This document shows, one piece after another, positions 28,644 to 64,000 of a DNA stretch of 64,000 nt. The stretch comes from Clostridia bacterium (GTDB lineage: Bacteria; Bacillota; Clostridia; Oscillospirales; CAG-272): positions 22,082 to 86,081 of the forward strand of contig CAAFYZ010000031.1 of NCBI GenBank assembly GCA_900767415.1, in the 5' to 3' direction. The notes under the pieces are model-generated. The model had not been told where the DNA came from. It saw only the letters and a list, made by a program, of their open reading frames with translations, and made no database searches. The position numbers were made by a program, and so were the translations under genes. Position 1 is the first letter of the stretch; each line of letters opens with the position of its first letter.

Positions 28644-28720
28644 ATAGATAAAGCAAAATGCTTTTCTTCATTTTCATCAGAAAGGAAACTTCCGCGTGTG
28701 CGGAAGGTATGGTGTTTTTT

Positions 28721-44700: not shown

Positions 44701-47700
44701 ACTGACGAAGATCATCATTCCCACGAGCGTCAGAGAGATTGAAGCGGAAGCGTTTGCGGAATGCAAACTTTTGAACTCCGTCGTCTTCGAGAACGCAGGC
44801 GCCACCTCCGGAGCACCCGCTCTGACGATCGGCGAGCGCGTCTTCTTGAACTGCGACGAGCTTACCTCCATCGTCCTTCCCGCACGACTCGGCAGCATTG
44901 CCCTGGCAAGATATACGATCGTGGAGGGGAACTTCCTCGAAGAAGGCACCCCGAACGCCTTTGAAAAGTGCGACTTCTTTGCCGAAGTCTCGGTGGCAAA
45001 AGGACACAATGCGAAATTCACCTCCGAGGACGGTGTCCTCTTCGGTGATTACGGTACGACCCTTCTGTATTATCCCTGTGCCAAAGCGGCAGAGAATTAT
45101 ACGATTCCCGACGGCGTGGTGAAGATCGCCGAGACCGCATTCAGCGGTTGCGGTTCTCTGAAGGGCGCTCTTACGATCCCGGGTCGCGTCGGTGAGATCG
45201 GCATCGCCGCCTTCAAAGGCGCGAGCGGCATCTCCTCCCTGACCTTCGGCGGCGGACTGACCGCGACCGATGTCACGATCGCCGACTACGCCTTTGACGG
45301 ACATCGGATTATGACCCTCACCTTTGAAGAGGGAAGCATGGTCCGCACGATCGGTGCGTATGCCTTCCGCTTCGGCGGCAGTTACTCCCAGCAGAAAGAG
45401 GAGAAGGTCATCACCCTGCCCGCTTCTCTGAATACCGTCGGCGACGGTGCGTTTGCCGGCTACGGTAAACTTTCCGTTACCTTCGCGGCAGGCGACAATA
45501 CGCTCTCCTGCGGCAACAATGTCTTCTCGGACTGCGAGATCGGTACGCTCTCCCTTCCAAAGAACATGACCGCACTCCCGAACTTCTTCTTCGGTCTCTC
45601 CGTCGAGAACATCGTCGTGGATCCCGCGAACCCCGTGTTCCTGTCGGATAACGGCGTTCTCTACACCAAGAACGGGGAAGGAAAGGCGGACGTCCTCGTC
45701 CTCTATCCCGCGTCGAAGAGCGACGCATCCTTTGAGATCCCGAACACCGTTACCGCGATCGCGAGCGGTGCCTTCCTGGGGGCGCAGTTCTCCTCCGTGA
45801 CGATCCCCTCGTCGGTGACCTCCATCGGTGAGCAGGCGTTCTACTATACGCCGAACCTTACGTCGGTGACGATTCCCGCGTCCGTCACGGACATCGGTGA
45901 AAAAGCGTTCGCCGCTTACAGCCGGTATACCAAACTGACGACCGTTACCTTTGAGGACGGCGATGCGGTGCTGACCATCGGCGCACACGCCTTCGACAAT
46001 CAGAAGAAACTGACCGCGATCATCCTTCCCGCAAGAGCGAAGACGATCGGCGACTACGCCTTCTACAACACGCAGGGCGTTACCACCTTGACTCTCGGCG
46101 GTGTCGAGACGATCGGCGCACATGCCTTCGATTCCTGCTACTATGCCGGTGAGGTGACCTTCCCCGCAACGCTGAAGTCGATCGGTGAAAAAGCGTTCTA
46201 TTGCGGTAGCAAATGGGGAGGCGGTTCCTACTCCAAGATTACGGCATATCGCTTTGCCGAGGGGTCGCAACTCGAGTTCATCGGCGCGAATGCTTTTGAA
46301 AACGGTATCTTCGAGGCATTCACGATCCCCGCATCGGTGAAGACGGTATCCGACGGTGCCTTCTACAATGCGAAGAATCTGGCAACGCTCACCTTTGAAG
46401 ACGGCGATACACCGCTCGTCTTCGGTGCGACGGACGAAGACTCTTTTACAGGCGTTCTTTACGGCACCGCAGTCACCGGACTTTCCTTCCCGTCCCGCCT
46501 TGTCGAGATCGGTCGGGGTGCCTGCGCGTATTCCAAGGTTGCCACCGTCACCTTCGGTGAAAACAGCAAGCTGACTACCATCGGCGCAAGTGCCTTCATG
46601 AGCGCGAAGATTAAGAATGTGACGATCCCCGCCTCGGTGAAGAACACGACGGTGATCGGTATCGGCAACGACGCTTTCAGCGGTTGCCCGCTGGAATCCG
46701 TCACCTTCGCTCCCGGCACGGAACCCCTGACCATCGGTGAAGACGCTTTCTCCGCCTACGGTGTGGAGAACGAAAAGGCGATGACCTCCGTCACGCTCCC
46801 CGCAAGACTCGCGCCCTTCACCGCCGCCGACGGCACGGTGATTCCCGCGCTTGCAAACGGCAGAGACGTCTTCAACTGGCAGCTCGCTTCCTTTACGGTA
46901 GAGAGCGGCAGTACGGTGTACGCCGCCGTTGACGGTGTCCTCTACAATGCCGATAAGACCGAGCTCTTCTTCTGCCCGAGAGCAAAGGAAGGTGCCGTGA
47001 CCATTCCCGCGACGGTCAAGAAGATTGACGCACAGGCATTCTACTCGTGCCAGAGCATCGCATCCGTCACCTTCGCCGACGGTAGCGCCTGCAAGGAGAT
47101 CGGCGATCAGGCATTCTACTGGTGTAAAACCATCACGACCCTCGTGATTCCCGACAGCGTTGCGAAGATCGGAAAAGAGGCGTTCGTCAACTGCCAGGGA
47201 CTGGAATCCCTGACTCTTCCCGCCGCGATGACGTCCTTCGATAAGGACATGATCAAAAACTGCGTCAAACTGACGAACCTTGAGATCGGCGGCAGTGCCA
47301 ACTATCAGATCGTGGGCGGCGTACTGTTCACCGCGGACGGCAAGACGATGATCTTCTATCTCCCCACGCTGACCGCCACGACCTATACGGTTCCCGAAGG
47401 GGTTGAGACCATCGGGGAGCAGGCATTCAACTCGAACACCTCGCTGACCTCCGTCTCGCTTCCCTCGACGCTGAGAGAAATCGGAAAATCGGCATTCAGC
47501 GGTTGCAATGCACTGACCGAAGTGACCTTCGCACCCGGTACGGCACCGCTTGTCATCGGTTACAACTCCTTTGCATACACCAAGATTCCGTCCTTCACGG
47601 TTCCCGCTCGGACGGTATCGATCGAAGGGGCTGCCTTCAACGGCGCCGCCCTTACCGAACTGCACTTCGAGCAGGGAAGCAAACTGGGGTATATCGGCGA

Positions 47701-49813: not shown

Positions 49814-49848
49814 AGCATTCGTCGGGCGTCCTATGCCCGACGAATGCT
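49814..49848 (+). terminator. Strong stem-loop after the giant gene (probable terminator, weak U-tract)
   Basis: Perfect 14-bp stem AGCATTCGTCGGGC-GTCCTAT-GCCCGACGAATGCT, followed by CCTTGCTGTTTT. Confidence 0.6.
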
Positions 49849-49941
49849 CCTTGCTGTTTTAAGGGGAGTATGTGAATTCTGTAGGCATATCCCGAAAATT
49901 CCCCTGCAACGGAAAAAATACGGATTCTCCCGCTTTTCCTG

Positions 49942-49991
49942 CGAAAACACGGGGAATTCCGAACCCTGTATAAGCCGCTTTCAGCGGCAGA
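49942..49991 (+). repeat. Copy A of a duplicated 50-nt leader element
   Basis: CGAAAACACGGGGAATTCCGA-(11 nt)-GCCGCTTTCAGCGGCAGA. The 21-nt and 18-nt blocks are identical to copy B, which lies 158 bp downstream. Confidence 0.85.
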
Positions 49992-50064
49992 TTCAAATAG
50001 GAGGCGCGTGAAATTTTTACGCTTGGTATGACAGAGCGTTTTCGTATTTCACGCATGAATTCCC

Positions 50065-50097
50065 CCGAAAACGGGACCCTCCCCGTTTCGGTTTTCT
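50065..50097 (+). terminator. Attenuator-like hairpin with U-tract between the two element copies
   Basis: CCGAAAACGGG-ACCCTC-CCCGTTTCGG followed by TTTTCT. It lies inside the leader of the MoxR operon. Confidence 0.4.
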
Positions 50098-50099
50098 CA

Positions 50100-50149
50100 C
50101 GAAAACACGGGGAATTCCGATACTGATATGCGCCGCTTTCAGCGGCAGA
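50100..50149 (+). repeat. Copy B of the duplicated 50-nt leader element, ending 2 nt before the RBS of the first operon gene
   Basis: CGAAAACACGGGGAATTCCGA-(11 nt)-GCCGCTTTCAGCGGCAGA, followed by ACGGAGGTTATT-ATG (50162). Confidence 0.85.
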
Positions 50150-50161
50150 ACGGAGGTTATT

Positions 50162-51292
50162 ATGCAACAAACATGGATCAAAGATTATAAAAAGCGGCTG
50201 GTGCGTGAAAAAATCGTTACCTCTGCGGCATTCGGTCTGACGATCGGTGCGGGAGCGGAATTTCTCGCGGCACTTCTTTGCTATCTCTTTGATTTTAAGG
50301 GACTTTGGCTCCCCCTCACGGTCGGCGGCGGTGTGTTCCTTATCGCGTCGGTGCTCCTCTACTTCTTCAAATTCCGTCCGTCGGAAAAAGATGTGGTGCG
50401 CCGCATGGATACGATGGGACTGGACGAGCGCGCGGTGACTATGTATGAGCTGAAAGAAGAGGATTCCTTCATTGCGAGACGGCAGAGAGAAGATGCCGTC
50501 GAGAAGGTCTCTTCGGTCAGTCGGGACAAGGTCCGTTCCTCCTTCCCCCTCTTTGCACTGAAAACGTGGGCAGTGGTTCTGCTCTTTACCGTTCTTCTCT
50601 CCTGTGCCGGAATGACGACGGTCGCCGCACTGGCAAGTGCCGGTGTGATCCCGTCGCCCGAAATTCTGCCGAATAAGGATCGCGAGAAATTCTGCATTGT
50701 CTCCTACCTCACCGAAGGGGAAGGGGATATTCAGGGAGAGCCGGAGCAGACGGTCGAGACGGGCGCGGACGCGACGACTGTCGTGGCGGTTGCCGATGAC
50801 GGCTGGATGTTCTCAAAGTGGAGCGACGGAGTCAAAGACCCCGCCAGAACGGACAGAAAGATTCTGGAAGACTTTTCCGTCACGGCGATTTTCGAGGAGA
50901 TCCCCGAGACGAGTGAAGATGCGGACAAAGAGCAGGGGAGCAACTCCGAAGAAGGCGATGCCGACAAGAACGCTCCCCTCGACCCGGACAGCGAGAGTTC
51001 CAGCCCCGCAGGCGGCGGCGACGGCGACGGCGGAGAAGGGAACGGAGAAGGCAATAAAGGCGACGGCAGTGGCAGCGGCAGCGGCGGTCAGGAAGGCGAC
51101 GGTAAGGGCAACGGCAAAGGCGAAGGCGCAGGCGGCGGTTGGTCGGACGGCAACCAGATCATCGACGGCAAGACCGATTACCGCGATGTCCGCGACATCT
51201 ATTACGATCAGGCAATGGAAATTATCCGCAACGGCGGTGAACTTCCCGACTATCTGCGCGAGTTCATCGAGCAGTATTACGGAAGCATCTGA
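50162..51292 (+). CDS. Three-TM membrane protein with a Listeria/Bacteroides-type repeat domain, an acidic Gly-rich linker and a conserved-looking C-terminal segment
   Basis: TM helices at about aa 18-43, 48-69 and 135-162. Next comes CIVSYLTEGEGDIQGEPEQTVETGADATTVVAVADDGWMFSKWSDGVKDPARTDRKILEDFSVTAIF, then D/E/G/S/N low complexity, then IIDGKTDYRDVRDIYYDQAMEIIRNGGELPDYLREFIEQYYGSI. Confidence 0.85.
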   Translation: MQQTWIKDYKKRLVREKIVTSAAFGLTIGAGAEFLAALLCYLFDFKGLWLPLTVGGGVFLIASVLLYFFKFRPSEKDVVRRMDTMGLDERAVTMYELKEEDSFIARRQREDAVEKVSSVSRDKVRSSFPLFALKTWAVVLLFTVLLSCAGMTTVAALASAGVIPSPEILPNKDREKFCIVSYLTEGEGDIQGEPEQTVETGADATTVVAVADDGWMFSKWSDGVKDPARTDRKILEDFSVTAIFEEIPETSEDADKEQGSNSEEGDADKNAPLDPDSESSSPAGGGDGDGGEGNGEGNKGDGSGSGSGGQEGDGKGNGKGEGAGGGWSDGNQIIDGKTDYRDVRDIYYDQAMEIIRNGGELPDYLREFIEQYYGSI

Positions 51293-51327
51293 CCACGGAA
51301 TTCAATAACGAAAAGGAAGACAAAACC

Positions 51328-52392
51328 ATGATAACAGAAGAAAATATCCGCGAATTCAGCGAAAAGTGCGACAATATCTTTACACAGCTCCGCCGCGATG
51401 TCATCGGTCAGACCGAGGTCGTGGAGGGCACCGTCATTGCTATGATCGCGGGCGGCAACGTTCTGCTTGAGGGCGTTCCCGGCGTCGGCAAGACCCGTCT
51501 TGTGCGCAGTCTCGGGCGCGTCTTTGATATGCCGTTCTCGAGAATCCAGTTCACCCCCGACCTGATGCCCGCCGACGTTACCGGTACGAACATCATCGTC
51601 AAGGGCGAGGACGGCAACTCCACGTTCCAGTTCCAGCCCGGTCCCATCTTCAGTAACATCGTGCTCGCCGACGAGATCAACCGTGCGACGCCGAAGACGC
51701 AGTCCGCATTGCTGGAAGCGATGCAGGAGCATACCGTTACCGTCATGGGTGTCTCCCGGAAAATGAAAGAACCCTTCTTCGTCCTCGCGACGCAGAACCC
51801 CGTCGAGCAGGACGGTACCTACCCTCTGCCCGAGGCGCAGATGGACCGCTTTATGTTCAACCTCATCGTTCCGAACCCGGGACTTGACGAGCTCATGGAG
51901 ATCGTCAACATGACGCAGAAGACCATGGCAGAGGTTGCCGAGCCGGTCTGCAGCGGCGAGGAACTTCTGAAGATGCGCGAGACCGCAAACGGCGTTCCCG
52001 TCGCAGACGATGTCATGCGTTATGCGATGACCCTCTGCTCCGCGACCCATGCGTCGGCAGACGAGGCGAGCGGTGCGGCGAAGAAGTATATCCGCCTCGG
52101 CGCCAGCCCCCGTGCCGGACAGGCACTCATCTCCGCCGCGAAGGTTATGGCACTGATGAAGGGAAGATACAACGTCGCATACAGCGACATCAACGCGCTG
52201 GCAAAACCCGTACTCCGCCACCGTATGAAGCTCAACTTCGAGGCGATCGCAGACAGAGTCGCTCCCGACACCATCGTGGATATGATTATCGAAGAGGTCG
52301 GTGAACGCTTCGGCATCAACCCGAAGAAAGAAGCCGCGAAGACCGAAGGCGCGGAAGAAAAGAAAAAAGGACTCTTCGCGAAAAAAGCATGA
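51328..52392 (+). CDS. MoxR-family AAA+ ATPase
   Basis: Walker A EGVPGVGKTRL and Walker B/sensor IVLADEINRATPKTQSALLEAMQE. The YPLPEAQMDRF motif is typical of the MoxR/AAA_3 family. Confidence 0.95.
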   Translation: MITEENIREFSEKCDNIFTQLRRDVIGQTEVVEGTVIAMIAGGNVLLEGVPGVGKTRLVRSLGRVFDMPFSRIQFTPDLMPADVTGTNIIVKGEDGNSTFQFQPGPIFSNIVLADEINRATPKTQSALLEAMQEHTVTVMGVSRKMKEPFFVLATQNPVEQDGTYPLPEAQMDRFMFNLIVPNPGLDELMEIVNMTQKTMAEVAEPVCSGEELLKMRETANGVPVADDVMRYAMTLCSATHASADEASGAAKKYIRLGASPRAGQALISAAKVMALMKGRYNVAYSDINALAKPVLRHRMKLNFEAIADRVAPDTIVDMIIEEVGERFGINPKKEAAKTEGAEEKKKGLFAKKA

Positions 52393-52436
52393 CTCCGAGG
52401 CCGCTCGGTCGAACAAAACAAAAGTAGGTTATCAGA

Positions 52437-53333
52437 ATGAAAGTCTCTTATCTGAACGACGCGTTTTTCAGCCGTCTCGAGACCTGCGCGCTTCATCTGC
52501 GCGCGGATCTTTCGGGATTCTTCGGCGGAAAGCACCTCGTCAAGACATACGGTCAGACCGTCGAATTCGCCGATTACCGAGAGTATATGCTCGGCGACGA
52601 TATCCGACGGATCGACTGGAATCTATACAGCCGTTTTGAAAAATACTTTCTGAAGCTCTTTACCGATGAGCGGCAGATGCACACGCAGATCTTCCTCGAC
52701 TGCTCCGGCTCGATGGGGAAGGTCAACCCGGGGAAAGGCGCTTATGCCATCGCGGCGGCGGCGGCACTCGGCTTCCTCTCGGTGCACAATACCGACAAAG
52801 TCTCTTTCAAACTCATGCGCGGGAATCGTGCGGAAGATCCGTACGGCACGCTCGTGGGGAAAAAGGCATTTTTCCGCGCCGTCGCGTCGCTCGAAGAGAC
52901 CGAATTCGAGGGCGAGTGCGACATCGCCGCGGCGGTGACGGGGTGCGAGTGCGGGACGCGGGACGGTCTTTCGATCATTATCTCGGATTTTATGACCGAT
53001 TCCGACTGGCGCAAGGCGGTGGATTATCTCCGCTATAAAAACCGGCAGGTGCTCCTTCTTCAGGTTCTGACACCCGAAGAACTCGATCCCGCATACAGCG
53101 GAAACGTCAACCTCGTGGACGCCGAGGCGTCCGATCTCTTCGACGATCGGAATATGCGTCTGAAAATCAATGCCGGCATGCTGAACGCATATGATGAAGC
53201 CATGCGGGATTTCCTCCTCGGGATCCGTACGTTCTGTTCGTCGCGCGACGCCGGCTTCATCACGGTAAACAGCAAAGAGCCGATTGAGCGCGTTCTCTTC
53301 GGTGAACTGCTGAAAGTAGGTATAATGAAATGA
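52437..53333 (+). CDS. DUF58 (VWA-like) protein, the usual MoxR partner
   Basis: VEFADYREYMLGDDIRRIDWNLYSRFEKYFLKLFTDERQ...FLDCSGSMG is the DUF58 signature. Confidence 0.92.
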   Translation: MKVSYLNDAFFSRLETCALHLRADLSGFFGGKHLVKTYGQTVEFADYREYMLGDDIRRIDWNLYSRFEKYFLKLFTDERQMHTQIFLDCSGSMGKVNPGKGAYAIAAAAALGFLSVHNTDKVSFKLMRGNRAEDPYGTLVGKKAFFRAVASLEETEFEGECDIAAAVTGCECGTRDGLSIIISDFMTDSDWRKAVDYLRYKNRQVLLLQVLTPEELDPAYSGNVNLVDAEASDLFDDRNMRLKINAGMLNAYDEAMRDFLLGIRTFCSSRDAGFITVNSKEPIERVLFGELLKVGIMK

Positions 53334-55264
53334 ATCTTGTTGCTCCTTTGGGTCTATTGGCTCTGGTAGGTACGCTCGTCCTCGTGCTGATCTACCTGAT
53401 CAAGCCCAACTATCAGCAAAAATTCGTTTCCAGTACGTATATCTGGAAACTCAGTCTGAAATATAAGAAGAAACGCGTTCCCGTCAGCCCGCTTCGGAAC
53501 GTTCTGATCTTCCTTTGCCAGCTCTTCGCGCTCGCGGCGTTCGGACTCCTCGTCGCGACCCCGGTGATCCGGCAAATGACGACCACACCGAAGAACGAAA
53601 AGATCGCCGTGATCGACGCATCGGCAAGTATGCTCGTGAAGACGACGGACGGCTCCCGCTTTGAACGGGCGGTGGCGGAGGTGGCGACTCTCGCAGAGGC
53701 GACCCTCGCGGAAGAGGGGGGCGCGCTCAGCGTCATCGTCGCGGATTCCGAGGCGTACGTCCTCGTTTCCCGTGCCACGAGCGAGAATCTCACCGAACTG
53801 AAAACGAAGCTCGCGTCCTTAACCGAAGACGAGTTGAAATGCGGTTTCGGTTCTGCCGATCTGAACGGTGCGGCGTCGCTCGCCGAGGATATTCTGAAAC
53901 AGAATTCCGAGTCGCAGGTACTCCTGTATACGGCGACCGACTATATCGACAAAGGTGATTTCACCGTCGTGAACGTCGCGTCGGAGGACGACTTCAACGT
54001 TGCGGTTCTCGGCTGTCAGCCGACCCTCTCGGAGACAAACGCCTATTCCTTCACGGTCGACGTCGGCTGTTACGGTAGGACGAAGCCGGTGGAGGTCACC
54101 TGCGAGATCTACGGCGTCAACAAAAAGCGGGATAAAGACGGTGCCGTCACCGATCCCGGGAAAAGTCTGATTGCGAAGAAGACCGAATATTTCAGCGATC
54201 TCTCTCCGACGAAAACGATGATCTTCTCGGTGGAGGATTTCCCCGACGCAAACGGCGAGCCGATCCTCTCGTATGAGTATATGTATGTGCACCTGGACGA
54301 GGCGGACGGTTTTGAGAAGGACAACTCCTACAACGTCTACGGAGGAGAGAAGACCACGCTCAGAATCCAGTACGCAAGCTCCCAGCCGAACAACTTCTTC
54401 TCCGGTATCCTGCGCACCCTGCGGCAGTCGAAGAAGGGAAGTTTCAATATCGAAATTCAGGAGGTTGCGCCGGCGGCGGCAAAGACCGAAGGGTTCGACC
54501 TCTATATATACGAACATAAAATGCCCGAGGAGATGCCGACCGACGGTGTCGTCATGCTGGTCGATCCCGACAAGGCACCCGAGGGGAGCGGACTTCGCTT
54601 CGGCAATCTCGTCTCGGTGAACAGCTCGTCCACTCTGGCGTCCGGTACTTCGCACCCCCTGACCTCGGGGGTGAACCCCGACCGTATCACGGTTGCCGAA
54701 TACCGGAAGGTCCTCTCGTCCGACGGCTACGAAGAACTCCTCTACTATCACGGCGACCCCGTGATGCTTTCCAAAAAAGATGACGGCAAGAAGGTCATCG
54801 TCCTCGCCCTGAACCTCAACAAGTCGAGTCTCGGCGTCGTCGTGGACTTCCCGGTGCTTCTTTATAACATTTTTGAATATTATCTTCCTGCCACGCTGAC
54901 ACGGAACGAGTGCGAGGTCGGCGGGACGGTCCTCTTAAATCCCCGCGGCACGGACGCGACGTTCGACGGTCCGGGATATGCGAAGCTCCCTCTTTCGGAG
55001 CTCCCCGCGAGCTACCGACTCACGTTGCCCGGTGATTACACCGTTACGCAGACCGACATGAGAGGGAACACCGAGATCGATCAGATCTTCGTCCATGTTC
55101 CCGCCTCCGAAAGCGATATTACAAAGCAGGTGGACAGTCTCCCGGGACTGCATACGGAGACGACCATGGTAGAGTCGGATATCGACCTGCTCTTCTGGAT
55201 CGCTCTGTTCGCGCTCGCCTGCCTGTTCCTTGAATGGTGGCTCCATTCGCGCGAGAGAAACTGA
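53330..55264 (+). CDS. BatA_N-type double-TM protein with a VWA domain and C-terminal TM anchor
   Basis: MNLVAPLGLLALVGTLVLVLIYLIKP...second TM..., MIDAS-like VIDASASM, and a C-terminal LLFWIALFALACLFLEWWL. ATGA overlap with DUF58. Confidence 0.88.
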   Translation: MNLVAPLGLLALVGTLVLVLIYLIKPNYQQKFVSSTYIWKLSLKYKKKRVPVSPLRNVLIFLCQLFALAAFGLLVATPVIRQMTTTPKNEKIAVIDASASMLVKTTDGSRFERAVAEVATLAEATLAEEGGALSVIVADSEAYVLVSRATSENLTELKTKLASLTEDELKCGFGSADLNGAASLAEDILKQNSESQVLLYTATDYIDKGDFTVVNVASEDDFNVAVLGCQPTLSETNAYSFTVDVGCYGRTKPVEVTCEIYGVNKKRDKDGAVTDPGKSLIAKKTEYFSDLSPTKTMIFSVEDFPDANGEPILSYEYMYVHLDEADGFEKDNSYNVYGGEKTTLRIQYASSQPNNFFSGILRTLRQSKKGSFNIEIQEVAPAAAKTEGFDLYIYEHKMPEEMPTDGVVMLVDPDKAPEGSGLRFGNLVSVNSSSTLASGTSHPLTSGVNPDRITVAEYRKVLSSDGYEELLYYHGDPVMLSKKDDGKKVIVLALNLNKSSLGVVVDFPVLLYNIFEYYLPATLTRNECEVGGTVLLNPRGTDATFDGPGYAKLPLSELPASYRLTLPGDYTVTQTDMRGNTEIDQIFVHVPASESDITKQVDSLPGLHTETTMVESDIDLLFWIALFALACLFLEWWLHSRERN

Positions 55265-55279
55265 GAAAGGAGAAACAAC

Positions 55280-58060
55280 ATGATATCGAATTTCCGTATT
55301 GAATTTTCCCGTCCGTGGTTTCTTCTTCTTTTGATCCCGGCGCTGTTCGTTACCCTGTTCCCCTATTTCCGTCTGGCGAAAAAATTCCGCCGAAACCGCA
55401 ACCGCGTGATCTCCACCGTGACACACGCCGTTGCCATGACCCTCTGTATCACGCTGATCGCGGGCATTACCTTCTCTTACGACGTGCCGAACCGCGAGAA
55501 CGAACTTCTCGTCCTCGTCGACCTCTCGGACAGCAGTAAAGAGAAGGAGGAGGCGAAGGGTGAGTTTCTTCAGTCGGTCGTGAACGCCTGCGACAAAAAC
55601 ACGAAGGTCGGCATCGTTTCTTTCGGTACCGACACGGTGTACGCAGCCCCCCTTTCGTACGACTCCCGCGAGGTGTACCGTCAGTATCTTGCGGCAAAAC
55701 GCCCGGATACGAGTGCGACGGACATCGCCTCGGCGATTGATTTTGCCTCTTCGCAGTTTGAAAATCCGAAGTCGGCGAAGATCCTGCTTCTCTCCGACGG
55801 CATCGAGACGGACGGCACCGCGCTGTCCGCCGTGAAGATCGCCGCCGCGAAGGGCATCAAGGTCGACGTCGCACAGTTTTCCAAAGAACAACACAGCGAA
55901 ATGCAAATCATAGGTGTCAAAATGCCCGAAGATAAGGTCATCGTCGGTCAGGAAGTAAAGATTACTCTGACGGTCGAGACCAATCTGAAGGAAGAGACCG
56001 AAGTGCAGGTTTCGCTGAGTGACAAGGGCTTTTCGAGCGGTTCTGTCCGCGTCAAACTGAAAGGCGGCGTGGAGAGTTTTGAAGTTGCACACACCTTCCA
56101 GTCCGCCGGTATGCACGATATGATTTTCTCGCTCGATCCGATCGGCGATGTCGATACCGTCGGCGAGAACAACGTCTATCATTCCTACTTCAACATCCCC
56201 GTCTTCGACAACGTTCTGATTCTCGAGAACGTTCCGGGAGAGGCGGACACCCTTGCCGCTCTGCTCGGAGAGGATCGCGGCAACGTCAAGGTCGTGAACA
56301 TCCATTCCGAGTCGGAACTCGTTCCGAAGAGCGCGAGAGAACTTTCGGCGTACGAAGAGGTCGTGCTCGTCAATATGGCGAACTCGGATCTCACGGGCAT
56401 CGATATGCCTCCGAACTTTGTGGAAGCCCTCTACGATTACGTTTACCACCTCGGCGGCGGACTTTTCACCGTCGGCGGTAAGAACGACCTCGGACCCGAC
56501 GGTCTGACGCAGATTCCGCACGCATACAACCGCGCGGACATCGCCGACTCTCTCTTTTCTCAGATGCTCCCCGTCGATGTGATCGACTACACCCCGCCCA
56601 CCGCCGTGATGATCGTCGTCGACGCCTCCGGCTCCATGAGTGAGGGAAGATACGAGGCGGCTCTGCGGGCGGCACGCGAGATTGCCGGTGCTCTGACGGC
56701 GCGCGACTATTGCGGCGTCATGACGTTCAGCGATACCACCAAGGAAGAGATCGACGTCATCCCCGTTGCCCAGCGGGAGAGGATCTATCAGACCATCGAC
56801 GCGCTGAAACAGGTCGGCGGAGGCGGCGGAACCGTCTTCCGCGGTGCCATCAACGCGGCGGGCGGCGCGCTTGCGCCCCTTCCGGTCGAGCGGCGGCACA
56901 TCGTCTTAATCACCGACGGTAATCCTTCCGACCATCTGGAAGAAGAGTCGGCGAGCGACGAGAACGCGTTCGGCAAATACATCGACTACAACTATAATAT
57001 CAGAAACATCACCATGTCGGTTTTCACCGTCGGAAGAACTTCGAGTCTCGAAGCGATGCAGAAGACGGCGGAGCGCGGACACGGAACGCTCTATGACGTT
57101 CCGCTCGGTGAGCTCGACAAGATCACGACCTACGCGAGACAGGATCTCGCCGCGGCGCAGATCGCCGAACTGAACGAAGGGCTGAAAGCCACGCCGAAGA
57201 TCAAGGATCAGACTTCCGTCCTCGTCGGCATCGACTCCACGATGAAGATTCCGTATCTTTCGGGTTACTACGGCACGAAGCTGAAAGAGGGAGCCAAAGC
57301 CCCGCTCTTTTACGAGTATGTGCCGATCTATGCCGAATGGAATTTCGGCGCCGGCAGAGTCGGCAGTTTCCTCTCGGATCTCGGCGGCGCGTGGTCGCAG
57401 GAGTTCGTCACGGACGAGGTCGGTATCCGACTGATCAAGAACATTTCGGAGAGTCTTGCACCTTCTGAAGAGATTGAGCCGGATCGGCTGCAGATCACCG
57501 TCAAAGAGGAAAAAGACAATTATACCTACCGTCTGAATGTCTATACCTCTCTCGGAGAGGGAGAGAAGATCGTCCTGAAAGTAAAGCCGGAGTCGGCCGC
57601 CGCCGCCGCCGCATACTTTGACGGTGTCCCGGTGACACCGCTCGGCGACAACGTCGGCTTTACCTTCCGTCTCACCGTCGGCGGCGTATACCGCGTCACG
57701 GTGGAAAAGCAGGATGCCGAAGGCAATGTGACGGCGTCCCGCTCCCTTCTCGAAACCTTCTCGTATTCGGAAGAATATCTTGAATTTCTGCCGGAAGAGC
57801 AGGGGACGAAGTTCCTTGCCTCCCTTGCCGAAGACGGGAACGGAGAAGTGCAGACCGACCCCGTCGGCGTGTATGCCGGATTCGCGAAGGTATATGCGGT
57901 CGTGACCGACCCCCGCCTTGTCTTCCTGATTCTCGCCATTCTCTGCGTTCTGGCAGACGTCGCGGTGCGGAAGTTCAAGTTCAAGTGGATTCACGAGATC
58001 GTAAGAGACAGAAAACGCGAAAAAGAAATGACCAAAGAAAACGGGACAACCGAGAATTGA
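55280..58060 (+). CDS. BatA_N-type membrane protein with two VWA domains flanking a GATase1-like (DUF1355-like) domain, and a C-terminal TM anchor
   Basis: FSRPWFLLLLIPALFV, MIDAS 1 LVLVDLSDSS, a central VLILENVPGE...LGGGLFTVGG, MIDAS 2 IVVDASGSMSEG, and C-terminal LVFLILAILCVLADVAV. Confidence 0.9.
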   Translation: MISNFRIEFSRPWFLLLLIPALFVTLFPYFRLAKKFRRNRNRVISTVTHAVAMTLCITLIAGITFSYDVPNRENELLVLVDLSDSSKEKEEAKGEFLQSVVNACDKNTKVGIVSFGTDTVYAAPLSYDSREVYRQYLAAKRPDTSATDIASAIDFASSQFENPKSAKILLLSDGIETDGTALSAVKIAAAKGIKVDVAQFSKEQHSEMQIIGVKMPEDKVIVGQEVKITLTVETNLKEETEVQVSLSDKGFSSGSVRVKLKGGVESFEVAHTFQSAGMHDMIFSLDPIGDVDTVGENNVYHSYFNIPVFDNVLILENVPGEADTLAALLGEDRGNVKVVNIHSESELVPKSARELSAYEEVVLVNMANSDLTGIDMPPNFVEALYDYVYHLGGGLFTVGGKNDLGPDGLTQIPHAYNRADIADSLFSQMLPVDVIDYTPPTAVMIVVDASGSMSEGRYEAALRAAREIAGALTARDYCGVMTFSDTTKEEIDVIPVAQRERIYQTIDALKQVGGGGGTVFRGAINAAGGALAPLPVERRHIVLITDGNPSDHLEEESASDENAFGKYIDYNYNIRNITMSVFTVGRTSSLEAMQKTAERGHGTLYDVPLGELDKITTYARQDLAAAQIAELNEGLKATPKIKDQTSVLVGIDSTMKIPYLSGYYGTKLKEGAKAPLFYEYVPIYAEWNFGAGRVGSFLSDLGGAWSQEFVTDEVGIRLIKNISESLAPSEEIEPDRLQITVKEEKDNYTYRLNVYTSLGEGEKIVLKVKPESAAAAAAYFDGVPVTPLGDNVGFTFRLTVGGVYRVTVEKQDAEGNVTASRSLLETFSYSEEYLEFLPEEQGTKFLASLAEDGNGEVQTDPVGVYAGFAKVYAVVTDPRLVFLILAILCVLADVAVRKFKFKWIHEIVRDRKREKEMTKENGTTEN

Positions 58061-58083
58061 CCCGGAAAGGAAGGAAATAACCT

Positions 58084-60918
58084 ATGAAACGCATATCGTG
58101 CCTGCTGCTTCTGTGTCTCACCGTAGGCATGCTTTTCCTCCTTGCGGGTTGCGGCGGCGAGTCGCTCGCGACGCCGAAGGGCGTCGCGGTCGACGGGGTA
58201 AAGCTCACGCTCGACTGGCGGGCGGTGAAGAATGCCGCATATTACACCGTGGAGATTACTTCCGCGGAAGGGACGGAGGAAAAAGACTCCGGAAAAAATA
58301 CCTATTCTCTCGAGCACCTCAAAGAAGGCGACTACACCCTGCGGGTGAAGGCGATCGTCAGCGGTGCCGACGAAGAACATAAAAATTCCGCATGGTCGGA
58401 ATCCGTCTCCTTTACCAGAGAGCACGAGACGGGAATGACCTTCGCTCTGATCGACGGCGGAAAGGCGTTCGCAGTCAGCGGACTCGGTACGGCGGAAGGG
58501 GAGATTACCGTCCCCGACACCTACCGCGGACTTCCCGTGACGGCGGTTGCCGACAGGGCATTCTATAATAAGAGCGCTCTGACGCGCGTTACCCTCGGAG
58601 ACAACATCACCTCCATCGGCAAACAGGCGTTTGCCAACTGCTCCTACCTTGTCGGCGTCAATCTGCCGAAGAACCTTACCGTGATCGGCACGCAGGCGTT
58701 CCAGAGCTGTCGCGTTCTGGAGTCGGCGGTCGACATCCCGGGGAAAGTGACCGAGATCGGCGCGCAGGCGTTTGAATACTGTCGCAAGATCCCCTCGGTT
58801 ACCTTCGGCGACGGCGTTGCCGTGATCGGAGAGGGCGCGTTCGGCGGGTGCGAAGCCCTGACGACCCTCACCCTTCCCGATACCGTGAAGAGCATCGGGG
58901 AAAGTTCCTTCTCCCGCTGTACCTCCCTGCGGAGCGTCACGGTCGGAGACGGGATCTCTCTTCTTCCGAAAGACGCTTTCCGTTCCTCCGACGCACTGGT
59001 TGCCGTAACGCTCGGCACCTCGGTGAGCGAGATCGGAGCGTATGCGTTTGCCGACTGCGCCGCACTCGCCGAGATCTCCCTGCCCGACAGCGTGAAGACG
59101 ATCGGGTCGTATGCGTTCTCGGGCTGTGCGGCACTGACGGGATTTGCCCGTGTCGGTACCTCTCTTTCCTCCATCGGGCGCGATGCGTTCAAGGACAGCG
59201 GATTCTTCGCCGATGCGTCGGCGGACGCCGTGTATGTCGGCGCGTGGTTCGTCGGTTGTAAGAGCGGAGATATGCAGAAGAATTCCGTGAAGGACGGTAC
59301 GGTCGGCATTGCCGATTACGCGCTTGCCGGGTGTGAAAAATTCGGCGACGCGCTGATTCTTCCGGACAGCGTGAAATACATCGGAGAAGGTGCCTTCTCC
59401 TCTTCTAAAAAACTCAACGTTGCCGTCATCGGTAGCGGTGCCGTAACGCTCGGTGCGCGTGCGTTCGAAGACTGCACGGCACTGACGCGCGTTATTCTCG
59501 GTTCGTACCGCACGGGCGATTCCGCCGGGATCGACAAGAGCAGTCTCGTATCCGTCGGCGATTATGCCTTCCGCAAGTGTGCGAACCTCGCGTCCGTCGA
59601 GATTCCGCAGACGGTGGAGAGAATCGGCGTCTTCGCCTTCCACGATACCAAGATGTACACCTCGGCAGACCGTGATGTCTACGCGGGAAAATGGTATGTC
59701 GAATGCAAGACGGAATACGCCTACGGGACGGTTGCCGTCGCCGAAGGGACGGTCGGTATCGCCGATTACGCCTTCTACCGTTGCAAGTCGATCACCTCGG
59801 TGAAGATCCCCGACAGCGTGAAGACGATCGGGCGCGCCGCGTTCTATCAGTGCTATACACTCTCCCGTGTGACGCTCCCCGCGACGCTCTCCGAGATCAA
59901 GGACTATACCTTCTATCTTTGCGAAGAGCTGATCCTCCCCGAACTTCCTCTGACGCTCACCCGCATCGGACGCAGTGCTTTCTATAAATGTCAGCTGACG
60001 GTGTCGAACGCCCCCGAGGGAGAGAGACGCCTCATCATTCCCGACGGCGTGACCGAGATCGGTGATTACGCATTCTATTACTGTACCTTTACTTACGATG
60101 ACCGCACGACCGGGGAAAAGGTCCCGGGCGGCATCACCTCTCTGGTTCTCGGCGACGGCGTCATCCGCGTCGGTGCACAGGCATTTGCCGGGATCGGGAC
60201 GCTGAAGAGCGTGACCTTCGGTGCTTCGGTGCAGACCGTGGAAGAAAAGGCGTTCTATAAATGCACGTCGCTTCGGACGCTCGAAATGAACGAAGGACTC
60301 CGCATCGTCGGTACCCGTGCCTTCGCCCGTTGCGAGGCACTGGAGAGCATCGCTCTCCCCGCCACCCTGACCGATGTCGGCCCGTATGCCTTCTATCGTT
60401 GCAAGGGCGTGAAGAGCATTTCCCTCGGCGGTACCGTCCGCGTCGGCGACTCGGCGTTCCTCGGACTTTCCGCAGTGACGGAACTGAAGATTCCCGCCAC
60501 GCTGAACACGATCGGAAAACAGGCGTTCCGCGGCATGACTTCGCTGAAATACGTTTATTTGCCAACAACAGTTGACAATATCGGCGCACACGCCTTCTAC
60601 GGTTGTGCGAATCTTACGCTTTATGTTGCGGCAGAGGCAGATCCCGCGGGATATGACGCCCGCTGGAACTCTTCCTATCGTCCCGTCGTATATTCCACCG
60701 AGGTGGACGACGCCGGCAACGTCCGCTCCTTCGTTACGGCGGAGGGCGGTGTTACCAACCTGAACGGTGCGACCGCCTTCTCCGCTCCCGAGCGGGAAGG
60801 GTGTGCCTTCGTAGGATTTTCGGCAGGACCGTACGGCGCGCCGGAATACACCGTCGCGACGCTTGCCGAGGTTCCTGCCGGCACCCGCCTCTATGTCGTT
60901 TATACGCAGGAAAACTAA
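58084..60918 (+). CDS. BspA-type LRR lipoprotein (944 aa), paralogous in architecture to the 2659-aa protein
   Basis: MKRISCLLLLCLTVGMLFLLAGC with lipobox LAGC. It has one ...DWRAVKNAAYYTVEI... module, a long LRR_5-type array (PD.V..IG..AF..C..L) and a C-terminal Flg_new-like FSAPEREGCAFVGFS...TRLYVVY. Confidence 0.9.
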   Translation: MKRISCLLLLCLTVGMLFLLAGCGGESLATPKGVAVDGVKLTLDWRAVKNAAYYTVEITSAEGTEEKDSGKNTYSLEHLKEGDYTLRVKAIVSGADEEHKNSAWSESVSFTREHETGMTFALIDGGKAFAVSGLGTAEGEITVPDTYRGLPVTAVADRAFYNKSALTRVTLGDNITSIGKQAFANCSYLVGVNLPKNLTVIGTQAFQSCRVLESAVDIPGKVTEIGAQAFEYCRKIPSVTFGDGVAVIGEGAFGGCEALTTLTLPDTVKSIGESSFSRCTSLRSVTVGDGISLLPKDAFRSSDALVAVTLGTSVSEIGAYAFADCAALAEISLPDSVKTIGSYAFSGCAALTGFARVGTSLSSIGRDAFKDSGFFADASADAVYVGAWFVGCKSGDMQKNSVKDGTVGIADYALAGCEKFGDALILPDSVKYIGEGAFSSSKKLNVAVIGSGAVTLGARAFEDCTALTRVILGSYRTGDSAGIDKSSLVSVGDYAFRKCANLASVEIPQTVERIGVFAFHDTKMYTSADRDVYAGKWYVECKTEYAYGTVAVAEGTVGIADYAFYRCKSITSVKIPDSVKTIGRAAFYQCYTLSRVTLPATLSEIKDYTFYLCEELILPELPLTLTRIGRSAFYKCQLTVSNAPEGERRLIIPDGVTEIGDYAFYYCTFTYDDRTTGEKVPGGITSLVLGDGVIRVGAQAFAGIGTLKSVTFGASVQTVEEKAFYKCTSLRTLEMNEGLRIVGTRAFARCEALESIALPATLTDVGPYAFYRCKGVKSISLGGTVRVGDSAFLGLSAVTELKIPATLNTIGKQAFRGMTSLKYVYLPTTVDNIGAHAFYGCANLTLYVAAEADPAGYDARWNSSYRPVVYSTEVDDAGNVRSFVTAEGGVTNLNGATAFSAPEREGCAFVGFSAGPYGAPEYTVATLAEVPAGTRLYVVYTQEN

Positions 60919-60994
60919 GAAAATCAACAGGGATCGGACCGCTACGATCCGATTCTCCGAAATTTATTCTTTCCATAAAAGAAAGGAATCCCGT

Positions 60995-63900
60995 ATGATG
61001 AAAAAACTCACCGCCCTTGCGGCAACCCTCCTTCTGACCCTCGGCGTGCTTCTTCTTTGCACCTCCTGCGGGTCGGTGAAGGACCTTTCCGTGGATAAGG
61101 AGCATTTGCCGCAGACCGTATTCGTCGAGGGAAGCGACCTCGATCTGTCGGCGGGACAGCTCTTTGCCGACGATAAGACGGTTTCTTTTTCTGATCCCGA
61201 CGTTTCGGTGACCGGATATGACAAGAATACCGCCGGAAAGCAGACTCTGACCATCTCTTATAAGGGGAAGGAAACGACGCTTGACGTTACCGTGGTACCC
61301 CGTTTTGAGACGGCGGAGAAGTATCTCTATTTTGTCGGTGAGACCATCGACGCGATCGGCGTCCGCCTGCGCGTGACGCGGGACGACGGAACGAACTTTT
61401 CGGTTGCCGTCGGGGACGAGGGCGTTACCGTTACCGGCTTTACCACCGAGCAGGCAAACGACAATCTGATGCTGAACATCACCTGCCGCAAGGACAGCAC
61501 GGAGTATACCGGCAAGTTTTCGGTTATCGTCGCGGATCCCGCCGTCACGTTCAAAAAGCCGAGAAAGACCGCCTACGGCAGTCATGAATCCACGCTCGAC
61601 GTGACCGGTGCCACCCTCACGCTGAAGAACGCAGACGGCAAGACCACCCGGTATATTTCGTCGGATGCGATGACCTTCGAAGGGTACGATCCCGCCGCCG
61701 CGACGGCAGCGAACCCCACGGCGACCGAGACGGTAAGAGTCATGTGGCACGGGCGCGAGATGGCGACCTTCGACGTTACCGTCACATACAGCGACGTCTC
61801 CCGCGTCAAGGATGCGGCGAAGACCCTTTCCGCGATCGACTGGTCGCATTATGAGGCCCCCGAAGAGGGAACGGGAAAAATGTACCTTCCGGCGAGCGTT
61901 ACCGACGAAGACGGAAAACTCGCGATGAGTGCCCTCGAACTTTACTATTCGCTGAAAGTCAAAGACGCGGATTACGTTCTCCCCGCAGAACTGGATTCCA
62001 TTGCGCGTCTTGCGATGATCTACGGGTATAACGAGTTTTACGCCGCCATCAAGCGTGCGTACGGCGACGTCTTCACGCTGGCACTCGAGAACGGAGCGGT
62101 CTACCTCACATACACCTGCACGACCATCGACAGCGCCCGCGCGGGACTTGCAAAACTCACGGCGGCGGAAGACGAGGATACCAAACTGATTTTCCGCTAC
62201 GGCAATCTTCTCAAAAACGAGAAACTGACCGAAAAATGCGGTGAGACGATCATTTATAACGGTGCCGAAGTCGGAGGACAGAAGGTCGATCTTGCCGTCG
62301 GACACATGATGACCGTCATCTACGACTCTTCCTTCTTCCTGAAAATCGAAAACGTGCTCGCCAAGATGATCGAGATCCCCGCGCTTCTCACGGTTCCCGC
62401 CGATTGGACGGCAGACAACCTTGCGGGCTATGCGGAGGCGATCGACGCGGTCTATAAGAAATTCGTCGAGATCAGTCAAAGCGATGCGACCGACGGCGGC
62501 ATCTACGAGATCGTCAACAGTTGGCGCGAAGGAAAAGACATCTTCGAGATTCTCTACCGCTATTACTACGGCGTCGGCAAGAGCACCGACAGCGACGCTG
62601 CCATGGCGGCTCTGAAAAAAATGAATACGATGATCGACCTGTATCTTCCGGGTCCGCTGGAAGAGCTTCGGTTCACGGTGCTTGCCGCCTCCCTTGTCCA
62701 GAAATATATGGAATCGGCGGCACAGCAGGCGCAGTACGGCGAGTTCCCCTCTCTGATGGAGAGCACGATCTTCTTCTCCTACTATCAGAACATGGCGGAG
62801 CAGATCAAGACGTTGCTGGAAGGCAAAGACGAGATGTATCTCTTCCTCTATCAGGAAGTGTTCGCCGCATCGGTTCTCTCTCTTCAGGTCGGCTCTTACG
62901 GTTATTATACCCTGCAGGGCACGTCCGCGTTCGATCAGAATTGTCTCGCGATTCTGAAAGAGTATCTTTCCGTCTGGGATGTCTATACCGACAACCCCGC
63001 GTATGCCGACAGTGCCGAGTTTTCGACCCGAGTGGACGCGATGTTCCGTGCCTTTGTCGCCCTGCGTCCGAATCAGCAGAAAAACGTTCTTGCGACCATC
63101 AACTATCTCTACGGTTCTCTTGATTTCATGGCACTCTTCCCGTCGGAAGAGGGACTGTATTCTCAGTTTGCGTCCTTCATTTACGCGAACTATGTCAGCG
63201 CCCTCGGCATCGATCTGACGAAAGACGAAAATCCCGCCTACGACCTCTTCTGCGACCTGATGGGCGCGCTCGAGTGCTATGCGAACGGATTTTACAGCAA
63301 CTTCGGCGCATTTATGAGTGACGCCGCCACCGTCTTTGCGGGACTTCCCGCAGAGCAGCAGACGCTCTTTGAAGAAAAACTCGGATTCCTCTATACCGAC
63401 CTGAAGGGCAAATTCGCGAACTTTACGAAGAAGACCGAAGGCGAAGGGGAAGACGCGAAGACCGTCTATGAGTTCAACGCCGTGACCCTGAGCGAGGAAT
63501 GGCAGAAAGTGTTCGACGCCATGACAGGCGAGTTTAGCCGTCTCACGATCGCGGAATCTTATATCGACGGTATCGTGGCACAGCTGACCGGAAAATCGAC
63601 GCCGATGTATCTTGCGTACATCGCCTCCTTTGAGAGAATCCGCGTATGGGAAGACAAGATCCTTAACGAAGGCGACGAGCAGGTTCTCTTCTATTATTAC
63701 AATCAGGTAACGAAAGACGGCGACTTCCCCTATTACAAGTCGGTTTACGATGCGAGAGGCAATTACGAGAGATATCTCTTCATGCTCGGCGTAGAGAAGA
63801 CGACGTATGAGTCCTACACCGACCTTCGCACCTTCCTCCGCGACTATGCCGATTACTTCTGGACGGTCGGGCAGTACATGGGTCTGATGGATCCTCTTGC

Positions 63901-64000
63901 CTCCACCTCTCCCTTCGATATGAAGGCAGCGTCGCTGAAAGCCATGTTTGCCGCTTTCCGCGCACTCTCTGCCGAAGAAAAGTATGCAATGCTCGGCATC
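60995..64000 (+). CDS. Large lipoprotein with N-terminal Ig-like domains and a long helical-looking uncharacterised region; runs off the right edge
   Basis: Missing from the ORF track because it has no stop in the window. ATG at 60995 follows GAAAGGAA. MMKKLTALAATLLLTLGVLLLCTSCGS is a signal peptide with a Cys. Big-like segments (GKQTLTISYKGKETTLDVTV) are followed by an aromatic/Ala/Leu-rich sequence. No listed plus ORF shares this frame after 60995. Confidence 0.8.
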   Translation, partial: MMKKLTALAATLLLTLGVLLLCTSCGSVKDLSVDKEHLPQTVFVEGSDLDLSAGQLFADDKTVSFSDPDVSVTGYDKNTAGKQTLTISYKGKETTLDVTVVPRFETAEKYLYFVGETIDAIGVRLRVTRDDGTNFSVAVGDEGVTVTGFTTEQANDNLMLNITCRKDSTEYTGKFSVIVADPAVTFKKPRKTAYGSHESTLDVTGATLTLKNADGKTTRYISSDAMTFEGYDPAAATAANPTATETVRVMWHGREMATFDVTVTYSDVSRVKDAAKTLSAIDWSHYEAPEEGTGKMYLPASVTDEDGKLAMSALELYYSLKVKDADYVLPAELDSIARLAMIYGYNEFYAAIKRAYGDVFTLALENGAVYLTYTCTTIDSARAGLAKLTAAEDEDTKLIFRYGNLLKNEKLTEKCGETIIYNGAEVGGQKVDLAVGHMMTVIYDSSFFLKIENVLAKMIEIPALLTVPADWTADNLAGYAEAIDAVYKKFVEISQSDATDGGIYEIVNSWREGKDIFEILYRYYYGVGKSTDSDAAMAALKKMNTMIDLYLPGPLEELRFTVLAASLVQKYMESAAQQAQYGEFPSLMESTIFFSYYQNMAEQIKTLLEGKDEMYLFLYQEVFAASVLSLQVGSYGYYTLQGTSAFDQNCLAILKEYLSVWDVYTDNPAYADSAEFSTRVDAMFRAFVALRPNQQKNVLATINYLYGSLDFMALFPSEEGLYSQFASFIYANYVSALGIDLTKDENPAYDLFCDLMGALECYANGFYSNFGAFMSDAATVFAGLPAEQQTLFEEKLGFLYTDLKGKFANFTKKTEGEGEDAKTVYEFNAVTLSEEWQKVFDAMTGEFSRLTIAESYIDGIVAQLTGKSTPMYLAYIASFERIRVWEDKILNEGDEQVLFYYYNQVTKDGDFPYYKSVYDARGNYERYLFMLGVEKTTYESYTDLRTFLRDYADYFWTVGQYMGLMDPLASTSPFDMKAASLKAMFAAFRALSAEEKYAMLGI

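Follow-up and report, generated by a model that had tools for sequence, protein, structure and literature searches.

Loci that encode a MoxR-proper ATPase, a DUF58 protein and proteins with VWA domains (Bat loci) are widespread across phyla, and to our knowledge neither a substrate nor a mechanism has been identified for them in more than two decades. In the canonical Bat operon these genes are accompanied by accessory genes for BatC (TPR), BatD and BatE (SH3). Here we describe a variant of this arrangement from a Clostridia bacterium, a block of eight genes (g0 to g7) in which the MoxR, DUF58 and VWA genes lie in fixed order with genes for large lipoproteins, most of them dominated by leucine-rich repeats (LRR) of the LRR_5 family. 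The block was found in a 64,000-nucleotide (nt) stretch of contig CAAFYZ010000031.1 (assembly GCA_900767415.1, positions 22,082 to 86,081), hereafter the window. The molecular target of Bat systems has not been identified, and the aerotolerance or stress phenotype ascribed to them is disputed (PMC3557215). MoxR and DUF58 genes also occur in the PFNA cluster of Bifidobacterium, which consists of pkb2, fn3, aaa-atp/MoxR, duf58 and tgm (PMC8430577).

The genes g1 to g7 follow one another on the same strand (Table 1) with intergenic gaps of 35, 44, -4, 15, 23 and 76 nt, and no terminator-like site was found on the plus strand in any of these six gaps. A preliminary description of this DNA had proposed seven tightly packed genes with no terminator among them, and the open reading frames (ORFs) and gaps agree with it. 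The Pfam families also agree with the domains it listed, except that Pfam did not detect BatA_N in g5 and that the BatA_N match of g4 (23.8 bits) is below the cut-off of 25.9 bits; BatA matches are recorded in g4 orthologues. The lipoprotein gene g0 was described as lying immediately upstream in the same orientation. The gene and its modules were found there, but a spacer of 396 nt that holds a strong terminator hairpin separates it from g1. Because of this spacer and its 14-bp hairpin, g0 is probably a separate transcription unit.

Table 1. The gene block and its control elements in the window, followed by g5 relatives in distant loci. Positions are those of the window for the block; in the rows for distant loci, they are those noted for the CotH-type cluster in the named locus; aa, amino acids; TM, transmembrane segments.
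Feature	Positions	Strand	Description
g0	41786-49765	+	2659 aa; Pfam LRR_5 (14 stretches, 749 bits) and Flg_new, fn3-like; lipobox LSLAGC
Intrinsic terminator hairpin after g0	49814-49848	+	14-bp perfect arms
Structured leader before g1	49855-50161	+	61-nt direct repeat twice: 49931-49991, 50089-50149
g1	50162-51292	+	376 aa; Pfam Flg_new_2; three TM
g2	51328-52392	+	354 aa; AAA_3 (206 bits) and AAA_lid_2; MoxR-proper AAA+ ATPase
g3	52437-53333	+	298 aa; DUF58 (105 bits)
g4	53330-55264	+	644 aa; VWA_2, BatA-like
g5	55280-58060	+	926 aa; two VWA flanking GATase1_like (29.5 bits)
g6	58084-60918	+	944 aa; LRR_5 (7 stretches, 449 bits); lipobox LLAGC
g7	60995-64000	+	Big_3; lipobox LCTSC; gene runs past window end
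g5 relative, L085			33% identity; LRR_5 lipoprotein directly downstream
g5 relative, L086			36% identity; LRR_5 lipoprotein directly downstream
g5 relative, L087			33% identity; LRR_5 lipoprotein directly downstream
g5 relative, L091			32% identity; LRR_5 lipoprotein directly downstream
g5 relative, L082	12622-18032		31% identity; CotH-domain lipoprotein downstream
g5 relative, L090	12738-14690		35% identity; CotH-domain lipoprotein downstream
g5 relative, L088	1945-3960		32% identity; CotH gene just upstream; locus ends after g5
g5 relative, L089	605-2158		32% identity; CotH gene just upstream; locus ends shortly after g5
g5 relative, L084			31% identity; contig too short to show g5 neighbour
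g5 relative, L092			31% identity; gene after g5 broken by contig end, unassigned

We surveyed the neighborhood of g5 in other genomes. Loci were fetched by alignment of g5 relatives, one genome per species, with selection by g5 alone; of the 315 loci obtained, the best 80 (79 to 39% identity to g5) were kept with 10-kb flanks. They were annotated by phmmer with the eight window proteins; the start codons of g6 and g7 were the only ones refined. A gene for a g6-type LRR lipoprotein was located directly after g5 in 80 of 80 loci. The median gap between the two genes was 21 nt, and they overlapped in 20 of 79 loci, by 4 nt in 11 of these. Among the loci informative for the gene in question, g4 was present in 73 of 73, g1 in 59 of 59, the MoxR gene (g2) in 59 of 64, the DUF58 gene (g3) in 62 of 67, and a g0-like LRR gene upstream of g1 in 57 of 58. 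The median gaps from g1 through g6 were 47, -1, -4, 14 and 21 nt. The gap between g2 and g3, 44 nt in the window, had a median of -1 nt over 61 loci, and g3 and g4 abutted or overlapped in each of 66 loci (median gap -4 nt). This tight packing and the frequent stop/start overlaps suggest translational coupling. At one further locus (L081), a separate annotation by precomputed Pfam matches gave the same gene order, again with the LRR lipoprotein gene after g5.

The surroundings of the block were not conserved in this way. The first gene outside it came from many unrelated families, the largest accounting for 7 of 73, and LRR-like genes made up 10 of the 169 flanking genes. Because the flanks are diverse and so few of their genes are LRR-like, the linkage does not reflect general synteny, and the association of g6 with g5 (80/80, against a base rate of 10/169) is far beyond chance. 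The central claim of the preliminary description, that the LRR genes are tied to the MoxR/DUF58/VWA module, was borne out by this survey. Adjacency confined to a single genome, which would have counted against the claim, was not what we found: the arrangement recurs in the 80 loci and in four distant ones (L085, L086, L087 and L091).

A few loci had individual irregularities. There was a partial duplicate of g5 (545 aa; L021, 12769-14406) between g5 and g6 in one locus, a tandem duplication of g1 in another (L019, 3475-5984), and a g5 divided into two ORFs, probably by a frameshift or an assembly error, in a third (L041, 3972-6671). An additional gene family was found after the block in eight loci (L001, L006, L054, L056, L062, L004, L052 and L074), as the first gene after g7 in the first five of these. 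Its products are mostly about 1150 to 1200 aa long (714 to 727 aa in L052 and L074). The corresponding position lies beyond the window end, and this family may be an extra optional component.

Relatives of g5 extend well beyond these loci. An exhaustive search at E ≤ 1e-30 gave 847 clusters at 50% identity, and a distant sample was made up of nine full-length relatives, 31 to 36% identical to g5, from organisms with a GC content of 24 to 56%. In the four distant loci with an LRR_5 lipoprotein directly downstream of g5 (GC 24 to 54%), its kinship with g6 was confirmed by phmmer scores of 338 to 526 or by LRR_5 annotation. Other distant loci have a lipoprotein with a CotH domain (Table 1). The CotH-type clusters all keep a homologue of g1 (E = 1e-16 to 1e-19) upstream of MoxR, together with MoxR, DUF58, a BatA-like protein and g5, and some of the CotH lipoproteins carry Flg_new. 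In L082, the CotH gene is followed by two more lipoprotein genes (451 and 758 aa) of no known family. Over all informative loci, the gene after g5 encoded an LRR_5 lipoprotein in 85 cases and a CotH lipoprotein in 2. The chassis thus stays the same throughout, and its partner is in every case a large lipoprotein that belongs to one of two classes. Exchangeable lipoproteins on an unchanging chassis are what a dedicated partnership would be expected to show.

The genes of the block are not all retained together in every copy. There were two loci per genome in five genomes (L005/L057, L009/L053, L033/L047, L045/L051 and L052/L061). Four clusters have neither MoxR nor DUF58 (L010, L045, L058 and L063), one has no MoxR (L061), and three have no DUF58 (L009, L027 and L056). 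These reduced clusters keep g0, g1, g4, g5 and g6, and some keep g7; in the four without either gene, at least 2150 aa of g0 are in view and g0 runs past the locus edge. For L045, L061 and L009, there is a complete second copy in the same genome. The reduced clusters, three of them with a complete copy in the same genome, suggest that the ATPase pair can be shared and that lipoproteins stay with their own set of membrane proteins. We also compared the distance matrices of the proteins. Those of g1, g4, g5 and g6 were intercorrelated with r = 0.80 to 0.90, whereas their correlations with g2 and g3 were only 0.54 to 0.71, and partial correlations among the four, controlling for g2 and g3, were 0.62 to 0.80. 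This co-variation is supportive but weak, because slowly evolving proteins correlate less for trivial reasons.

Neither g2 nor g3 has a hydrophobic segment, and both are cytoplasmic. Motif conservation was scored over 59 to 78 orthologues per protein. The Walker A (GVPGVGKT) and Walker B (LADEINRA) motifs of g2 are invariant in 59 orthologues, and the DxSxS motif of g3 is conserved. The mean identity of g2 orthologues to the window protein is 77%. The two VWA proteins, g4 and g5, have a common layout, with two N-terminal helices connected by a short Lys/Arg-rich loop, a hydrophilic body, a C-terminal helix and a basic tail. In g4, the N-terminal transmembrane (TM) hairpin precedes a VWA_2 domain predicted to be external, an ectodomain of about 400 aa without an assigned family, and the C-terminal TM; conservation of its metal ion-dependent adhesion site (MIDAS) motif is only partial. 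The g5 protein has the same two-TM N-terminus, followed by a first VWA domain (VWA1), an immunoglobulin (Ig)-like sandwich, the GATase1-like domain, a second VWA domain (VWA2), beta-sandwiches, a TM and a cytoplasmic tail. We considered whether g4 and g5 are recent paralogues and rejected this, as BLASTP similarity between them was not significant beyond the MIDAS strand.

By the positive-inside rule, the VWA bodies of g4 and g5 would be outside, and their loops and tails cytoplasmic. In the AlphaFold2 (AF2) model of g5 (pLDDT 85.9), residues 3 to 9, ahead of the first TM, form a beta-strand, which would fit an N-terminus on the ectodomain side. The outward-facing orientation that had been assumed for the VWA domains is thus also the predicted one, and it agrees with experiments on BB0173, a BatA-like protein with a periplasmic VWA domain (PMC5700661). 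The MIDAS residues of g5 are strongly conserved: in VWA2 (D448, S450, S452, T518 and D546) all are invariant, and in VWA1 (D81, S83, S85, T147 and D173) S83 and T147 are conserved in at least 90% of orthologues and the others are invariant. The fold of g5 matches extracellular ligand-binding VWA proteins, including ANTXR2/CMG2, CaV alpha2delta, ITIH1 and pilus adhesins. VWA1 has sequence matches to BatB 3ibs (E = 3.8e-6) and to 4jdu (E = 7.9e-5), and the fold comparison with these two gave TM-scores of 0.70 to 0.71 on the target.

In g1, a TM hairpin is followed by a conserved loop in the cytoplasm and by a third TM. An external Flg_new_2 domain comes next, and an acidic linker rich in Gly leads from it to a C-terminal segment that is also conserved. 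The g1 loop carries a motif, D83..GL.ER..T..E, that is conserved across orthologues, and the tail of g5 (AVRKFKFKWxHE) varies hardly or not at all. Outside their domains, g1 and g5 are most strongly conserved in these cytoplasmic segments. We could not attach a name to g1, as its 251 homologues are all hypothetical proteins with Flg_new_2 only. Among the g1 homologues P0386, L090 (4609-6027) and L092 (4642-6273), one record from a metagenome-assembled genome is annotated as 'magnesium transporter'. Homologues of g1 gave two kinds of sub-threshold Pfam match, one to MgtE that falls in the TM hairpin (E about 0.03) and one to DUF4175 (E 0.001 to 0.003). Both are probably noise; the one to DUF4175 could still point to the small membrane proteins found at other MoxR loci.

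In the lipoprotein g6, an N-terminal domain that is Fn3-like precedes the LRR_5 repeats, and a Flg_new-like domain forms the C-terminus. A lipobox was found in 77 of 79 g6 orthologues, which are about 900 to 1000 aa long where complete (80 loci). The signal peptides of the lipoproteins are of the ordinary Sec type, without twin arginines. The mean identity of g6 orthologues to the window protein is 42%, compared to 44 to 45% for g4 and g5. Because g6 is as conserved as these membrane proteins, it does not resemble an adhesin or sensor that is diversifying. Matches of g6 and g0 to the HupY/LrrG adhesin model were below threshold. A relation to gliding machinery was rejected, since the match of g6 to Gli349 (115 bits, against a cut-off of 1750) reflects repeat-level similarity only.

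Full-length orthologues of g7 are about 1110 aa long (1111 aa in P0121). The AF2 model of g7 (pLDDT 87.4) has three Ig-like (Big_3) domains and then an all-alpha domain of about 840 residues with pLDDT about 90. There was no Foldseek match for the all-alpha domain in PDB, and no Pfam or NCBIfam family. The Foldseek matches of g7 in PDB, to S-layer and Ig-repeat proteins, were made through the Ig-like part only, with TM-scores below 0.1 on the query. An enzymatic role of g7 was considered and dropped, as no NCBIfam or PDB sequence match was found beyond Big_3.

We propose that the products of g0 to g7 make up a single conserved apparatus of the cell envelope in gut Clostridia of the Christensenellales/Pumilibacteraceae type. 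The polytopic proteins g1, g4 and g5 would form its membrane part and would display Flg_new_2 and MIDAS-bearing VWA domains on the outer face of the cytoplasmic membrane. The displayed domains could associate, in a metal-dependent manner, with the tethered lipoproteins g6 and g0 and often g7, which the membrane part would hold, assemble or switch. A MoxR hexamer, with DUF58 as its adaptor, would act on the short cytoplasmic loops and tails that are conserved in g1, g4 and g5. By analogy to integrins, which are activated from the inside out, it might drive assembly or conformational changes across the membrane. We give this explanation, taken as a whole, an even chance of being right. Functional coupling of the block genes is likelier than the whole, and the specific step in which VWA domains capture a lipoprotein is less so. 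The binding of lipoproteins through MIDAS and the direction in which energy or information flows are what we infer.

Several points weigh against a single apparatus. The gene g7 is dispensable (present in 52 of 74 informative loci). In most loci g0 lies far from g1 (median gap 188 nt), and in the window it has a terminator of its own. The 80 loci are from related lineages, so their counts are not phylogenetically independent events, and the co-variation described above may merely reflect a faster evolution of extracytoplasmic proteins compared to MoxR and DUF58. Contact between VWA domains and lipoproteins is inferred. A cytoplasmic ATPase would have to act on ectodomains via tails of 6 to 30 residues, and the proposal gives no explanation of how. 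In addition, Leptospira lacking all bat genes showed no phenotype (PMC3557215).

Alternatively, the genes could share an operon and have separate jobs, with the Bat-like module serving a general envelope or stress function, such as has been proposed for other Bat and MoxR loci, and the LRR adhesins merely co-regulated and making no contact with it. Bat-type modules occur in many phyla without LRR neighbors (PMC3557215, PMC5700661), LRR_5 genes are common in the host genomes, as the flanking genes indicate, and g7 and g0 vary in presence or size. However, gene order and stop/start overlaps persist over the whole range from 79 to 32% identity even as the flanking genes are replaced, which is rare under co-regulation alone. 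Moreover, second copies without MoxR retain g1, g4 and g5 with their own g0 and g6, and the partner was swapped for the CotH lipoprotein class and not simply lost. We therefore consider separate jobs unlikely. MoxR and DUF58 could also work before export, keeping large lipoprotein precursors export-competent while the VWA proteins provide membrane docking sites. Members of the MoxR family act as chaperones, MoxR1 assists RipA secretion in Mycobacterium, and at 944 to 2659 aa the partners here are unusually large for secreted proteins. Such chaperoning is made less likely by the complete-looking clusters that have neither MoxR nor DUF58 and by the ordinary signal peptides of the lipoproteins, and it leaves the conserved external MIDAS sites without a role; it seems to us very unlikely.

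The flow of information could also be the reverse of that in our proposal. The LRR lipoproteins would then be receptors for a ligand from a host, a partner microbe, a phage or an epibiont, and the VWA proteins with MoxR/DUF58 would relay the signal inward, much as in the Esr pathway, one of the MoxR-vWA systems with surface sensors that have been described as sensing conflict or threat. Recognition is a classic role of LRR domains, g1 and g5 have conserved cytoplasmic segments, and in Actinomycetota a MoxR-vWA pair acts downstream of surface filamentous sensors (bioRxiv 10.64898/2026.09.08.750141). There is also a secondary match of g2 to bpMoxR; at 39 bits, it is a far poorer fit than AAA_3 (206 bits). 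No output module (kinase, FHA, transcription factor or effector) is found in the block, and g6 is as conserved as g4 and g5 and not hypervariable, as noted above. A defense role was rejected, since PADLOC returned no significant match: there were two weak ones for g2 (DolB, 22.7 bits; REase_II, 16.6 bits) and none for the other six proteins. In the sample, the block has one gene order across a broad group of related species, differing flanks and one or two copies per genome, which is more in keeping with a resident part of the chromosome than with a mobile island. Inward sensing thus appears distinctly unlikely, and a single envelope apparatus is the explanation that we prefer.

The block names concrete candidate partners for Bat-type MoxR modules, so that the question of what these modules act on becomes testable. 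It may even reveal the working partners of Bat/MRP-type MoxR proteins, that is, VWA adaptors whose external MIDAS docks lipoproteins encoded in cis, on a modular chassis (a g1-like protein, MoxR, DUF58 and two VWA proteins) with lineage-specific cargo, mostly LRR_5 and, in the related branch, CotH kinase-like; we put this forward tentatively and think it more probably wrong than right. If it were right, the block would be a previously unrecognized ATP-linked system that assembles or switches surface lipoproteins in monoderm bacteria. Two cultured mouse-gut isolates, Pumilibacter intestinalis CLA-AA-M10 and Anaerocaecibacter muris CLA-AA-M11, are among the carriers. The block is about 22 kb of conserved, unannotated surface biology in abundant and poorly known gut bacteria.

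The leader upstream of g1 has a conspicuous structure in the window. Its two 61-nt repeat copies are 82% identical and 158 nt apart within the g0-g1 spacer. A GCCGC-TTTCA-GCGGC hairpin with GGAGG after it closes each copy, and the g1 start is abutted by the second copy. The RNA fold of the leader is unusually stable (z = -4.3). The repeat motif was absent from 92 other loci, and a riboswitch or other known RNA was rejected, as no Rfam family matched at the gathering score. The remainder of the window is ordinary chromosome, with genes for FeoB, NrdD, Dus, ABC transporters and a PreP-like peptidase. Three large ORFs on the plus strand (36-2360, 2535-5270 and 28658-32035; 774, 911 and 1125 aa) had no Pfam family at E ≤ 1e-4. 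Long antisense ORFs of up to 2238 aa are found on the minus strand opposite g0, g6, g5 and g2 (41912-48628, 57991-60927, 54935-56899 and 51277-52416, respectively). They are by-products of GC-rich coding sequence, and such ORFs mislead length-based gene calling in many related loci.

The lipoproteins g6 and g0 resemble BspA-type proteins (Tannerella BspA, Treponema LrrA and HupY/LrrG) in being dominated by LRR_5 and lipid-anchored, here by predicted lipoboxes. In contrast to these, g6 belongs to a length-conserved orthologous group that evolves no faster than its membrane neighbors, and its gene has a fixed place beside a MoxR/VWA module in an operon, an arrangement that we did not find reported in the literature searched. 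The Esr pathway of Actinomycetota likewise has a MoxR-vWA pair genetically tied to cell-surface repeat proteins. Its vWA protein is a cytoplasmic signaling partner, its sensors carry beta-propellers and its outputs are kinase/FHA proteins or effectors, whereas the block has none of these. We rejected membership of the block in Esr or in the MoxR-vWA-beta-propeller ternary systems on these grounds and on the scores of g2 given above.

In the PFNA cluster, as in the block, MoxR-proper and DUF58 are encoded beside a large Ig-like/FN3 surface protein that is a proposed adhesin or ligand-binding protein, and the hosts are gut commensals (PMC8430577). PFNA differs from the block in having no VWA membrane proteins. 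It encodes a Ser/Thr kinase together with a membrane protein that is transglutaminase-like, and its surface protein has FN3 in place of LRR_5 domains. Pfam found no kinase, phosphatase, FHA or transglutaminase domain in the block proteins. PFNA is a described tie between MoxR/DUF58 and an adhesin-like surface protein, so in its general form the idea has a precedent. The preliminary description had suggested that no MoxR-VWA system coupled to BspA-type adhesins was known. Full-text searches of the literature gave no report that pairs MoxR and DUF58 with leucine-rich repeats or MoxR with BspA; for MoxR together with CotH, they gave nothing relevant. The suggestion therefore holds for the literature searched, but with PFNA as a loose precedent and with a related branch that uses CotH.

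The closest likeness is to the Bat loci of Bacteroides, Leptospira and Borrelia. These also have an AAA_3 MoxR and DUF58 followed by two membrane-anchored VWA proteins; the double-TM N-terminal region of BatA probably recurs in g4, where its match is below the Pfam cut-off, and VWA1 of g5 resembles BatB 3ibs. The VWA domains are extracytoplasmic, by prediction here and as found for BB0173 (PMC5700661). In contrast to Bat loci, the block is without BatC, BatD and BatE. Searches with Pfam and NCBIfam gave no TPR or SH3 family in the eight block proteins, and lipoprotein genes stand in place of these accessory genes. The VWA proteins of the block are 2 to 3 times larger, with additional Ig-like and GATase1-like domains, a second VWA and a C-terminal TM. 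The block also has a three-TM Flg_new_2 protein before MoxR and invariably two or three large lipoproteins (LRR_5; Big_3/all-alpha), and its host is a Clostridium of the Gram-positive lineage. We found no description of this block in the literature searched. It is a well-conserved variant of the Bat-type MoxR system and not a canonical member, because it has a core of AAA_3 MoxR, DUF58 and membrane VWA proteins similar to BatA and BatB while BatC, BatD and BatE are absent and its VWA proteins are much larger.

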